Of a DNA stretch of 64,000 nt, positions 16,177-60,053 are shown piece after piece. How positions within the stretch are numbered: the first letter of the stretch is position 1; the number at the start of each line of letters is the position of its first letter. The stretch lies in assembly GCF_053078305.1 (NCBI RefSeq), contig NZ_CP166879.1, one strand, 5' to 3'. Made by a program: the position numbers and the translations under genes. The notes under the pieces are model-generated. The model ran no database searches. It was given only the letters and a program-made list of their open reading frames with translations, and was not told the origin of the DNA.

Positions 16177-16295
16177 ACACTCTGCCAGGGGAAATGCCTG
16201 ATTACATTGCGTTAACCAACTGAAAACATGACACAAACCCCTCATCCCCCTCCTGTTTCTCTTGCGTGACCGCTCTGCTGTCAATAGAATAAAAC

Positions 16296-16331
16296 GATCG
16301 ATAAAACAGGTATCGATCGTTACTATCGATC
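16296..16331 (+). promoter_or_regulatory. Ag43 phase-variation switch: three closely spaced GATC (Dam) sites in the OxyR-binding region
   Basis: GATC at 16296, 16315 and 16328, about 220-250 bp upstream of the flu start. Confidence 0.7.
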
Positions 16332-16548
16332 GTTTATAGTGGTTAATGGTCTGCGAAAAGGCAGCTGAATCTCTTCATCATGCAGAACGGAATTGCACAC
16401 AACGGACTGATACTTCTCTGGCGGATGAGAGAGGGGAAGCATTTATGTCCGGGAAAAACCACTTTATCTGACCATGCTGTTTTGTACCTGCCGGTATCCA
16501 CATTTGTGGGTACCGGCTTTTTTATTCACCCTCTGTAAGGAAAAGCTG

Positions 16549-28913: not shown

Positions 28914-29236
28914 AACTGACTGTTTCACCATTAGCAGAACACGATCTTGAAGCTATAGGTGACTGGATCGCTCAGGATAATCCTGTCCGTGCAATCAGTT
29001 TTACCGAAGAGCTTTACCAACAATGTCTGTTGATAGCCGAATCGCCAGTACTCTACAGAGAAAGACCCGAATTAGGGGCTGGGATCAGAGGTTGTTCGTA
29101 TGGTCGTTACCTTCTGCTGTTCAGGGTACTGGATACTGAAGTTCGTATCGAACGTATCGTTCATGGTTCCCGGGATATCAACAGGGTACTTGCAGAGCCA
29201 GACGACAAACCATCAGATCATTTCTGGCAGCCATAA
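28910..29236 (+). CDS. parE: ParE/RelE-family type II toxin
   Basis: 108 aa; start overlaps parD stop by 4 nt (ATGA). Confidence 0.75.
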   Translation: MKLTVSPLAEHDLEAIGDWIAQDNPVRAISFTEELYQQCLLIAESPVLYRERPELGAGIRGCSYGRYLLLFRVLDTEVRIERIVHGSRDINRVLAEPDDKPSDHFWQP

Positions 29237-29483
29237 ACAAAATCTGTGCGTTAACGCTCCCTAACACAGGTAGCCAGGTATTTTATAAATCTCTGTATTT
29301 TGTTGTTACTTCGATTCCGCAATTCAGCATATCGAACCAGACAAAATGATTACAGCAAAGCACAAAAAAGAGGGATTATAGCGTCAAAAGAATTCGAATT
29401 GCACATGGGGGCCTCATTGGTGGCCTCGAAAACAACAAAGACAAAACAATCAATACAAAACAATTGGTTATATAACCAGTTTC

Positions 29484-29502
29484 ATTCCGAGTCCGGGCAC
29501 CA
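29484..29502 (+). repeat. tRNA-Phe 3'-end remnant (island att site / direct repeat)
   Basis: attccgagtccgggcacca equals the last 19 nt of E. coli tRNA-Phe including CCA; the upstream tRNA body is absent. Confidence 0.75.
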
Positions 29503-37100: not shown

Positions 37101-37336
37101 CTGTCGTAAAAACAATTGGTTATGAATAAATTAACTTTCAGTTTATCACACTAGTAAATCGAGATTAATAAGTCATTTAAACCATTTTGATGGTTATTTA
37201 TTAGTGATATCAACTTGAGGTAAGCGTTAGTTTCGATAAGATAAACTGAGTTATTAATAGTCGAGGCAGATAATACAGTGTACCGATCTGTCTCTTTATC
37301 TACGCTAAATTGAAAGCTGGATTTAGAGGAACCAAA

Positions 37337-38854
37337 ATGTCTGAACAAGAAACACGGGGAGCCAATGAGGCTATTGATTTTAACGATGAACTGAGAAATC
37401 GCCGCGAAAAACTGGCGGCACTACGTCAGCAAGGTGTGGCGTTTCCCAATGATTTTCGCCGCGACCATACCTCTGACCAGTTGCACGAAGAGTTTGATGC
37501 GAAGGATAACCAGGAACTGGAATCCTTAAACATTGAAGTCTCGGTTGCTGGCCGAATGATGACCCGTCGTATCATGGGGAAAGCCTCCTTTGTAACGTTG
37601 CAGGATGTCGGTGGCCGTATTCAACTGTACGTCGCACGAGATAGCCTGCCAGAAGGTGTTTATAACGATCAGTTTAAAAAATGGGATCTGGGTGACATTA
37701 TCGGTGCCCGCGGTACGCTGTTTAAGACGCAAACGGGTGAGCTTTCCATTCACTGTACTGAGCTGCGCCTGCTGACTAAAGCACTACGTCCTTTACCAGA
37801 TAAATTCCATGGTCTGCAGGATCAGGAAGTTCGTTATCGTCAACGTTATCTGGACCTCATCGCTAACGATAAATCCCGTCAAACGTTTGTTGTCCGTTCA
37901 AAAATTCTGGCCGCTATCCGTCAGTTCATGGTCGCGCGCGGCTTTATGGAAGTAGAAACCCCGATGATGCAGGTAATTCCAGGTGGGGCATCTGCTCGCC
38001 CGTTTATTACCCATCATAATGCTCTGGATTTAGATATGTATCTGCGTATCGCGCCGGAGCTGTATCTGAAACGTCTGGTTGTAGGCGGTTTTGAACGGGT
38101 ATTCGAAATCAACCGTAACTTCCGTAATGAAGGTATTTCTGTTCGCCATAATCCTGAGTTCACAATGATGGAACTCTACATGGCGTATGCGGATTACCAC
38201 GATTTGATTGAACTGACAGAGTCACTGTTCCGCACCCTGGCACAAGAGGTTCTGGGTACCACTAAAGTCACTTATGGCGAGCATGTGTTTGATTTCGGCA
38301 AACCGTTTGAAAAACTCACCATGCGCGAAGCAATCAAAAAATATCGTCCAGAAACCGATATGGCCGACCTGGATAATTTTGATGCTGCTAAAGCATTAGC
38401 TGAATCTATCGGAATTACGGTAGAGAAAAGCTGGGGGCTGGGACGTATTGTCACGGAGATCTTTGATGAAGTGGCAGAAGCACATCTGATTCAGCCAACC
38501 TTTATTACGGAATATCCGGCAGAAGTGTCACCGCTGGCACGCCGTAATGATGTTAACCCGGAAATCACCGACCGTTTTGAATTCTTCATCGGTGGTCGTG
38601 AAATCGGTAATGGTTTTAGCGAATTAAACGACGCAGAAGATCAGGCTGAACGTTTCCAGGAACAGGTTAATGCTAAAGCTGCAGGTGACGACGAAGCCAT
38701 GTTCTATGACGAAGATTACGTGACTGCGCTGGAATATGGTCTGCCGCCAACCGCTGGTCTGGGTATTGGTATCGACCGAATGATTATGCTGTTCACAAAC
38801 AGTCATACTATTCGCGACGTTATTCTCTTCCCGGCGATGCGCCCACAGAAATAA
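37337..38854 (+). CDS. lysU: Lysyl-tRNA synthetase, heat-inducible
   Basis: 505 aa [44 protein letters not shown]...; lysU (not lysS) by position next to cadA-dtpC. Confidence 0.95.
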
Positions 38855-38972
38855 ATTTCACTTTAATGAACGAAGCAGTCAGGCGACTGCTTCGTTCGTC
38901 GTTCCGCAAATCCAGTTTTGAGGAGAGACGCTTCGTTTCACGATAACCAGCGGGTCCACTCAACTACAGCTC

Positions 38973-39146
38973 CTAAAAGAGAGAAAAAAGTAATGCCACA
39001 GGCAGACTCATTGGCCAGGTTATTCCGACCAGGAATGCACTAAGTAAACGAATATGTGTTTTCTCATGTGAGATAAACCAGATAATGACAAAGGATATGT
39101 TCACACCAATCACATAAAAAATTAATATTTTAGAGAATAGTGCCAT
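38973..39146 (-). CDS. ghoT: GhoT membrane-lytic toxin (type V TA)
   Basis: 57 aa MALFSKILIFYVIGVNISFVIIWFISHEKTHIRLLSAFLVGITWPMSLPVALLFSLF; below the ORF-track size cutoff, found by manual translation. Confidence 0.85.
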   Translation of the reverse strand: MALFSKILIFYVIGVNISFVIIWFISHEKTHIRLLSAFLVGITWPMSLPVALLFSLF

Positions 39147-39173
39147 TTTTTATGTTCTTCTTATCCTTCCTGG

Positions 39174-39470
39174 CTACTTGTAAAACTGACGGAAATAGTC
39201 ATCAACTGTCATAATGTTGAGGTCAAAATCAATATCCGGTAAGTCTAAGCATTTAAGCCTGATTAAATCTTCGATTTCACTTACGGCTAACGATGTCGTT
39301 ATTGCGAAGGAATTTTCATTCAATTGTCGTGGTATCCCATATTCATCAGCCACGATAGAAGAGAAATTCATATCATACATCAATGATCTTAACCTTAAGA
39401 ACACTGAGGAATAAGATGATGGATAATCAAAAGAAACAACATAAGTATTGAACTTGTTTTTACCTTCCAT
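39174..39470 (-). CDS. ghoS: GhoS antitoxin (endoribonuclease, type V TA)
   Basis: 98 aa MEGKNKFNTYVVSFDYPSSYSSVFLRLRSLMYDMNF... Confidence 0.9.
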   Translation of the reverse strand: MEGKNKFNTYVVSFDYPSSYSSVFLRLRSLMYDMNFSSIVADEYGIPRQLNENSFAITTSLAVSEIEDLIRLKCLDLPDIDFDLNIMTVDDYFRQFYK

Positions 39471-39696
39471 AATATGACTCCTATCAATATTGAACGCTTT
39501 GGGGACGCAAAACTTATTAACCCCGATTGATGATTCTCATATAGGAGATATTCTTTTTTTTGCTCAGTAAAGGGGATGACTTGGGACAAAAAAACGCTCT
39601 CTCTGCCCATTCTTTGTGCATCCCCCTACCCTTCAGATGCTCTCCTGCATCACTCCGCGGAGAGCATGAAAAATATCGTGGCTCTGTACTCTTCCA

Positions 39697-39969
39697 TCAA
39701 CTGCGAATATCATCATACTCCCGCGTTTTATCAAATTCGTGTTTCGCAAATGGGCATAGTGGGATAATTTTTCGTTTTTCCCGACGCATTTTTTCCACGA
39801 CTTTCGCAACCAGCTGTTTACCAATCCCTTGCCCTTTCAGGCTTTCATCGACATCGGTATGTTCGATAATTGCTAAATTCTCTCCGGTCGGCACAAAGAC
39901 AATTTCAGCGATTTGCTTGCCTTGTTCGTCATTAATGTAAAATTTATTGTGGCCTTCGCGTATTTCCAT
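39697..39969 (-). CDS. yjdJ: GNAT-like small protein YjdJ
   Basis: 90 aa [54 protein letters not shown]... Confidence 0.8.
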
Positions 39970-58782: not shown

Positions 58783-59874
58783 ATGCGTTTTCTGCGCCGA
58801 CCAATATCGCTGCGCCAACGGCTGATATTGACCATCGGGGCCATTTTGTTGGTGTTTGAGCTGATCAGCGTCTTCTGGCTATGGCATGAAAGTACCGAGC
58901 AGATTCAGCTGTTTGAGCAGGCGCTACGCGACAATCGCAACAACGATCGCCACATCATGCGTGAGATCCGCGAGGCGGTCGCCAGCCTGATTGTCCCCGG
59001 CGTCTTTATGGTCAGCCTGACGCTATTTATCTGCTATCAGGCGGTACGCCGCATCACCCGCCCGCTGGCGGAGCTGCAAAAAGAGCTGGAAGCGCGCACC
59101 GCCGACAACTTAACGCCCATTGCCATTCACAGCGCCACCCTCGAAATCGAAGCGGTGGTTTCGGCGTTGAACGATCTGGTCAGTCGCCTGACCAGCACGC
59201 TGGATAACGAAAGGTTGTTTACCGCTGACGTCGCGCACGAACTGCGAACGCCACTGGCGGGGGTGCGTTTGCATCTGGAACTGCTGGAGAAAACGCATCA
59301 CATTGATGTAGCACCGTTAGTGGCACGGCTTGATCAGATGATGGAGAGCGTCTCCCAGCTGCTGCAACTGGCGCGTGCCGGACAGTCATTTTCTTCCGGT
59401 AATTATCAACATGTAAAACTGCTGGAAGATGTCATTCTCCCCTCGTATGACGAACTCAGTACCATGCTCGACCAGCGCCAGCAAACCCTGCTATTGCCAG
59501 AGAGCGCCGCCGACATCACCGTTCAGGGTGATGCAACCCTGCTGCGGATGTTATTGCGAAACCTGGTAGAAAACGCCCATCGTTACAGCCCGCAAGGCAG
59601 CAACATTATGATTAAGCTGCAAGAAGATGGCGGAGCGGTCATGGCAGTTGAAGATGAAGGACCAGGTATTGATGAGAGTAAATGCGGGGAGTTGAGTAAA
59701 GCGTTTGTACGAATGGACAGCCGTTATGGCGGGATTGGTCTGGGGTTAAGTATTGTCAGCCGCATTACACAGTTGCATCACGGGCAGTTTTTCCTGCAAA
59801 ACCGGCAAGAGACTTCTGGCACGCGCGCCTGGATACGGCTGAAGAAAGATCAGTACGTGGCAAACCAGATATAA
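58783..59874 (+). CDS. basS: Sensor kinase BasS (PmrB)
   Basis: 363 aa from MRFLRRPISLRQRLILTIGAILLVFELISVFWLWHES... (TTG at 58774 is an alternative start). Confidence 0.9.
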   Translation: MRFLRRPISLRQRLILTIGAILLVFELISVFWLWHESTEQIQLFEQALRDNRNNDRHIMREIREAVASLIVPGVFMVSLTLFICYQAVRRITRPLAELQKELEARTADNLTPIAIHSATLEIEAVVSALNDLVSRLTSTLDNERLFTADVAHELRTPLAGVRLHLELLEKTHHIDVAPLVARLDQMMESVSQLLQLARAGQSFSSGNYQHVKLLEDVILPSYDELSTMLDQRQQTLLLPESAADITVQGDATLLRMLLRNLVENAHRYSPQGSNIMIKLQEDGGAVMAVEDEGPGIDESKCGELSKAFVRMDSRYGGIGLGLSIVSRITQLHHGQFFLQNRQETSGTRAWIRLKKDQYVANQI

Positions 59875-59939
59875 AGAAAGCTGCTGACCACCAGCACGCT
59901 GAACACGGTAGTTAAACTTTCATAAACACGGTTTTTCAT
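59850..59939 (-). CDS. pmrR: Small membrane peptide PmrR
   Basis: 29 aa MKNRVYESLTTVFSVLVVSSFLYIWFATY with GGAGGAGAG Shine-Dalgarno; 3' end overlaps the basS 3' end antisense; found by manual translation. Confidence 0.8.
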   Translation of the reverse strand: MKNRVYESLTTVFSVLVVSSFLYIWFATY

Positions 59940-59941
59940 TG

Positions 59942-59968
59942 CACTCTCCTCCGTTAACCTGGAGGAGA
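59942..59968. terminator. Hairpin between basS and proP (also contains the pmrR Shine-Dalgarno)
   Basis: ctctcctcc gttaacc tggaggagag inverted repeat. Confidence 0.5.
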
Positions 59969-60053
59969 GTATGCGCGTCAGAGATTAAGTGAACCTTAAG
60001 AGTTCAATTGTTGGTCTGATAAGACAGCGTCACATCAGGCCATCCGTTTCAGC

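Follow-up and report, generated by a model that had tools for sequence, protein, structure and literature searches.

The GhoS/GhoT pair (YjdK/YjdO) of Escherichia coli K-12 was reportedly described by Wang et al. in 2012 (Nat Chem Biol 8:855) as a type V toxin-antitoxin system. In GhoS, R28 is reported to be the most important catalytic residue, and the combined substitutions L25I and M31L to turn the antitoxin into a toxic RNase (PMC4010927). The toxin MqsR prefers 5'-GCU, a triplet that is missing from the ghoT mRNA, and an MqsR-to-GhoT cascade has been reported (PMC4344625, PMC4905990). Residues F38 and I21 of GhoT are discussed in mutagenesis and modelling work that is cited in PMC4344625. 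OrtT (YdcX), an orphan GhoT homolog of E. coli, belongs, like GhoT, to the PF10753 family and is likewise a small two-helix membrane toxin, but it has no adjacent GhoS, is not neutralized by GhoS, and has two GCU sites (PMC4344625).

We analyzed a stretch of 64,000 nucleotides from contig NZ_CP166879.1 (assembly GCF_053078305.1), referred to below as the window, for the presence and state of this system. Based on sequence identity, family membership, gene order, and synteny, we place a probability of about 0.93 on the reading that the pair found here is the chromosomal E. coli ghoST, the founding type V toxin-antitoxin system, intact and in its K-12 position. The features of the locus and of the adjacent DNA are collected in Table 1.

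Table 1. Positions of ghoST, its putative signals, and other features within the 64,000-nt window
Feature	Position	Strand	Remarks
ghoS (yjdK), antitoxin	39174..39470	(-)	ATG start, 98 aa
ghoT (yjdO), membrane toxin	38973..39146	(-)	ATG start, 57 aa
ghoS-ghoT spacer	39147..39173	(-)	27 nt, CCAGGAAGGATAAGAAGAACATAAAAA, purine-rich; identical to K-12
ghoS codon 63 SNP, GCA>GTA (A63V)	39283	(-)	nonsynonymous relative to K-12
ghoS 5'-GCU triplets (n=3)	39248..39350	(-)	gene positions 121, 213, 221
ghoS Shine-Dalgarno, AGGAG	39478..39482	(-)	7 nt before ATG; read from sequence
yjdJ-ghoS intergenic region	39471..39696	(-)	226 nt; 8 nt differences from K-12
Sigma-70-like match	39734..39706	(-)	inside yjdJ 3' end
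Hairpin in ghoT-lysU spacer	38868..38897	.	perfect, 13 bp, 4-nt loop; from folding of the spacer
lysU, mechanical ORF	37310-38854	(+)	514 aa from TTG
Genomic island at pheU site	1-29480		next to the K-12-collinear part
Partial 3' tRNA-Phe copy	29481-29502		TTCATTCCGAGTCCGGGCACCA
CbeA, type IV toxin-antitoxin pair	25978-26466	(+)	PF06154, 1.7e-54
CbtA, type IV toxin-antitoxin pair	26415-26933	(+)	PF06755, 2.1e-62
ParD, type II toxin-antitoxin pair	28650-28913	(+)	PF03693, 3.9e-17
ParE, type II toxin-antitoxin pair	28910-29236	(+)	PF05016, 7.9e-18
sRNA STnc630	59843-60008	(-)	Rfam, 181.8 bits, above gathering score
'IS102 RNA'	16294-16530	(+)	Rfam, 74.6 bits, above gathering score

The two genes lie on the minus strand with ghoS upstream of ghoT and an operon-like gap between them. 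The ghoS ORF encodes a product whose N-terminus is MEGKNKFNTYVVSFDYPSSY, and that of ghoT encodes MALFSKILIFYVIGVNISFVIIWFISHEKTHIRLLSAFLVGITWPMSLPVALLFSLF. A sequence-only reading of this DNA had proposed a type V ghoS-ghoT pair at 38973-39470, with a 98-aa GhoS followed by a 57-aa GhoT too short for the ORF track. Each of these points held: at 57 aa, ghoT falls below the default 60-aa minimum of the ORF listing and becomes visible at a minimum of 20 aa, at which setting both ORFs fall exactly at those limits, ghoS first and ghoT 27 nt behind it. That reading did not mention the minus-strand placement of the pair. No frameshift or internal stop was found in either gene in the window sequence.

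The identity of both products was assessed with protein families and by comparison with K-12. GhoS matched PF11080 (3e-40; score 136.5 bits, cutoff 21; positions 6-93 of the 94-position profile covered) and GhoT matched Toxin_GhoT_OrtT, PF10753, over the full length of the profile (8.9e-26), while no NCBIfam model matched either protein. The only solved structure matched by sequence was 2LLZ, the NMR structure of YjdK/GhoS, to which the protein is identical at 97 of 98 residues. At the nucleotide level, ghoT is identical to K-12 MG1655 b4559 (174/174 nt), and its product is exactly GHOT_ECOLI. The ghoS gene differs from K-12 MG1655 b4128 at 5 nt, of which 4 are synonymous and 1, giving A63V, is nonsynonymous. 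The claim that both proteins have the expected sequences is thus exact for GhoT and one residue off for GhoS. Over the 842-nt interval bounded by the yjdJ and lysU stops, there are 14 differences from K-12 and no indels. The window and K-12 have in common the locus, gene order, 27-nt spacer, neighbors, reported functional residues, and distribution of GCU triplets described below, and differ in GhoS A63V, the 4 synonymous changes in ghoS, and the 8 differences in the upstream intergenic region. Pfam families, K-12 identity, gene order, and synteny agree on a type V ghoS-ghoT pair.

These same results bear on whether the ORFs might be chance reading frames or decayed pseudogenes. Apart from the shortness of ghoT (57 aa) and the A+T richness of the pair, nothing speaks for such a view, and we reject it outright on the strength of family matches at 3e-40 and 9e-26 with full-length profile coverage, a ghoT that equals its K-12 counterpart at every nucleotide, and the lack of stops and frameshifts in either gene. 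The toxin gene is assigned as ghoT, and its OrtT paralogue is ruled out, because the gene lies directly downstream of ghoS, contains no GCU, and is identical in nucleotide sequence to K-12 ghoT.

The genes around the pair were also compared with those of K-12. The order cadCBA-dtpC-lysU-ghoTS-yjdJI-dcuSR is the same as in K-12, and ghoST sits between lysU and yjdJ, in the K-12 position, within 12 kb that are 99.1% identical in DNA sequence. By Pfam, YjdJ is a GNAT protein and YjdI a Fer4_19 protein. The mechanical lysU ORF is 514 aa long when read from TTG, compared with 505 aa (1518 nt) in K-12/RefSeq; the listed TTG start is an upstream in-frame extension, and the real start is elsewhere. 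On a larger scale, positions 29481-64000 of the window are collinear with K-12 at 99.0% identity. When a 751-nt query covering the locus was searched against 5426 complete E. coli genomes, 5333 (98%) gave a match, which in 5267 genomes spanned at least 80% of the query length, and the matched genome stretches carry ghoS and ghoT annotation in RefSeq. The placement of the pair in a core region, as the sequence-only reading had it, is borne out by this collinearity and by the occurrence of the locus in 98% of complete E. coli genomes.

The composition and the distribution of the pair add to this picture. The G+C content of ghoST is 34-35%, compared with 48.9% for the window. A search that reaches only relatives sharing exact 5-residue words placed the relatives of GhoS in 47 clusters at 90% identity among 5.8 billion proteins, and those with a source name were all labelled E. 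coli, Shigella, or human gut metagenome. Because the pair is A+T-rich, has few GhoS relatives, and is present in nearly every E. coli genome, these results suggest that ghoST, a lineage-restricted element, was acquired long ago and has by now come close to fixation in E. coli, and that it is not ancestral core DNA.

A divergent ghoS-ghoT locus was seen among the metagenomic relatives, at positions 1011-1457 of L008 (metagenome contig ERZ27254724 k141_124395; also L009 and L010). Its genomic context is a different one, rich in A+T, with a membrane-protein gene on one side and an EamA-family gene on the other. There, TAT replaces the ghoS stop codon, such that a single ORF runs into ghoT. Ahead of the conserved N-terminal strand, the ghoS-like part lacks an ordinary start codon, and it carries K in place of R28. 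In the same contig, ghoT keeps its own ATG and has a strong AAGAGGG Shine-Dalgarno sequence. The protein cluster has 91 members. Judged by its sequence, the locus looks like a decaying antitoxin beside a retained toxin.

We asked how the residues and the predicted fold of GhoS compare with those of the described protein. L25, R28, and M31 are all present in the wild-type state, and R28 is invariant in 6 full-length homologs. An AF2 model of GhoS (mean pLDDT 68, moderate) has the order beta-alpha-beta-beta-alpha-beta, with strands at residues 8-15, 37-39, 54-59, and 83-88 and helices at 18-33 and 63-76. The best PDB match to this model was 2LLZ (TM 0.75, Foldseek). Many of the next-best matches were Cas2 chains (2IVY, 4ES1-3, 1ZPW, 5ZYF, and others), although these are weak (E 0.007-0.09, TM about 0.45-0.5, 10-21% identity). 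The ferredoxin-like beta-alpha-beta-beta-alpha-beta fold is common to the GhoS model and Cas2, the CRISPR adaptation nuclease, whereas GhoS forms a narrow Pfam family by itself and has no CRISPR or cas genes nearby. As modelled, GhoS has a Cas2-like ferredoxin fold, in agreement with the published description.

The single amino acid difference from K-12 was examined in the same framework. Using a 55-mer centered on the SNP, for which megablast seeds only if the SNP base matches, the V63 allele was found in 0 of 5426 complete E. coli genomes and the K-12 allele (A63) version in 5290. Draft assemblies do carry V63: the exact protein was found on 46 contigs and is indexed in 103 blocks of an assembly collection. 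The neighbors are always the same there, with an intact ghoT alongside, and one of the contigs, belonging to GCA_018683035.1, matches 6.3 kb of the window at 99.95% identity. In the moderate-confidence model, helix alpha-2 begins with residue 63. Nearly all homologs have Ala in column 63, whereas the most divergent homolog has Glu; the neighboring column varies freely.

We regard A63V as most likely neutral. An effect on the protein, by which A63V would weaken GhoS or shift its specificity and leave this lineage with a leakier or differently tuned GhoT switch, could draw on the rarity of V63 among complete genomes, on the near-constant Ala in column 63, and on the published sensitivity of GhoS specificity to conservative changes (PMC4010927). 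It is nonetheless extremely improbable: the exchange of Ala for Val is conservative, the site, as placed by the model, starts helix alpha-2 far from R28 in the sequence, the most divergent homolog tolerates Glu there next to a freely varying column, and V63 persists in many draft assemblies beside an intact ghoT. Conservative changes are not automatically neutral, since L25I and M31L near R28 made GhoS a toxic RNase. If A63V did alter the RNase activity or substrate range of the antitoxin and reset the threshold for GhoT production in this lineage, which we consider highly doubtful, the substitution would parallel in nature what L25I/M31L did in the laboratory, where these changes made GhoS a toxin.

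The GhoT protein contains two hydrophobic stretches around a polar loop, SHEKTHIR, and has a GRAVY value of 1.5; both I21 and F38 are present. Given its 100% identity to the K-12 toxin, GhoT is predicted to damage the membrane and arrest growth.

Signals for the expression of the pair were sought in the flanking DNA. A good Shine-Dalgarno sequence precedes ghoS, while that of ghoT is weak or distant, with only the purine-rich spacer ahead of its start. The intergenic region between yjdJ and ghoS presumably contains the ghoST promoter and 5' UTR. The sole sigma-70-like match on the minus strand falls upstream of this region, and a promoter scan gave no more promoter-like sites than expected from shuffled sequence. 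No MqsA-type palindrome (ACCT-N2-4-AGGT) was present upstream of ghoS, no RNA family was found by Rfam at the ghoST locus, and a terminator scan found no intrinsic terminator there. The 118-nt spacer between the convergent genes ghoT and lysU folds at -39.5 kcal/mol (z = -3.1) and contains a perfect hairpin that begins 14 nt past the lysU stop and 75 nt past the ghoT stop. This hairpin was not called by the terminator scan because no U-tract follows it on either strand; it is likely a shared transcription stop or stabilizer for ghoT and lysU.

The distribution of MqsR sites in the pair was then compared with the published one. There are 3 GCU triplets in the ghoS mRNA and 0 in the ghoT mRNA, an asymmetry that matches the reported MqsR-to-GhoT cascade. 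Zero GCU in a gene as short and A+T-rich as ghoT (174 nt) is only mildly unusual, occurring in about 10% of composition shuffles. The window does not include mqsRA.

The way in which the pair would act is carried over from published K-12 experiments on near-identical genes. By analogy with K-12, ghoS and ghoT would be transcribed as one mRNA, and GhoS, a small Cas2-like endoribonuclease, would cut the ghoT portion of this message such that the toxin is not made. Given the 99% identity of GhoS to the K-12 protein, neutralization is expected to occur at the RNA level and not through toxin binding. Under stress, the type II toxin MqsR, cleaving at 5'-GCU, would remove the ghoS half of the mRNA; because GCU is confined to the ghoS half, the ghoT message would become enriched. 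GhoT, with 57 aa and two hydrophobic helices, would then insert in the inner membrane and lower membrane potential and ATP, and slower growth would follow.

It has to be weighed whether this toxin-antitoxin model, applied to genes that are indeed ghoS and ghoT, misstates their normal role. On such a view, the pair is not a stress-triggered growth brake; the small RNase GhoS would serve a wider regulon, and the membrane peptide GhoT would do harm only on overproduction. Overproduced GhoS is reported to degrade about 20 other transcripts for purine/pyrimidine transport and synthesis (PMC4010927), the roles of MqsRA are controversial and transcription of a toxin-antitoxin system need not mean toxin activity (PMC11783221), and the GhoT homolog OrtT works without any antitoxin (PMC4344625). 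Against this, K-12 genetics and biochemistry support specific cleavage of the ghoT mRNA and rescue from GhoT (PMC4010927, PMC4344625, PMC4905990), 98% of E. coli genomes conserve the linkage, order, and spacing of ghoS and ghoT, and the GCU asymmetry fits the cascade. We consider the wider role very unlikely as the account of what this pair normally does, and we retain the toxin-antitoxin model.

Next to the K-12-collinear part, the window contains a genomic island at the pheU site. K-12 collinearity begins at a partial 3' copy of tRNA-Phe, just upstream of cadC, and the window contains no complete tRNA gene. Strain VG38-53E1 has a stretch that matches the first 25 kb at 99.3% identity and contains the microcin H47 genes mchB, mchI, and mchS3 along with agn43 and CP4-type genes. 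In VG38-53E1 the matching stretch adjoins kps capsule genes, which puts the island at another site in that strain. The 'IS102 RNA' match falls just upstream of the position of agn43 as mapped by the VG38-53E1 match.

Two other toxin-antitoxin pairs are present in this part of the window. The CbeA/CbtA pair lies inside the island and is followed by DUF5983 and DUF4942 genes; the limits given for its ORFs were set mechanically, and translation probably begins further downstream. The ParD/ParE ORFs overlap by 4 nt and lie at the very edge of the island, immediately ahead of the tRNA-Phe remnant. With ghoST, CbeA/CbtA, and ParD/ParE, the window holds three toxin-antitoxin systems of three types.

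From these results, we conclude that ghoST of this strain is an ordinary example of a system that was known before, at the position where it is known to occur. The strain retains a standard, intact ghoST in the conserved cad-lysU-dcu neighborhood, which in itself matters little, while the pheU-site island that adjoins this neighborhood contributes two more toxin-antitoxin pairs. In ghoST itself, nothing is specific to the strain except a rare, conservative substitution in the antitoxin. The value of the analysis lies in the correct annotation of the 57-aa ghoT, a gene that is overlooked by ORF size cutoffs.
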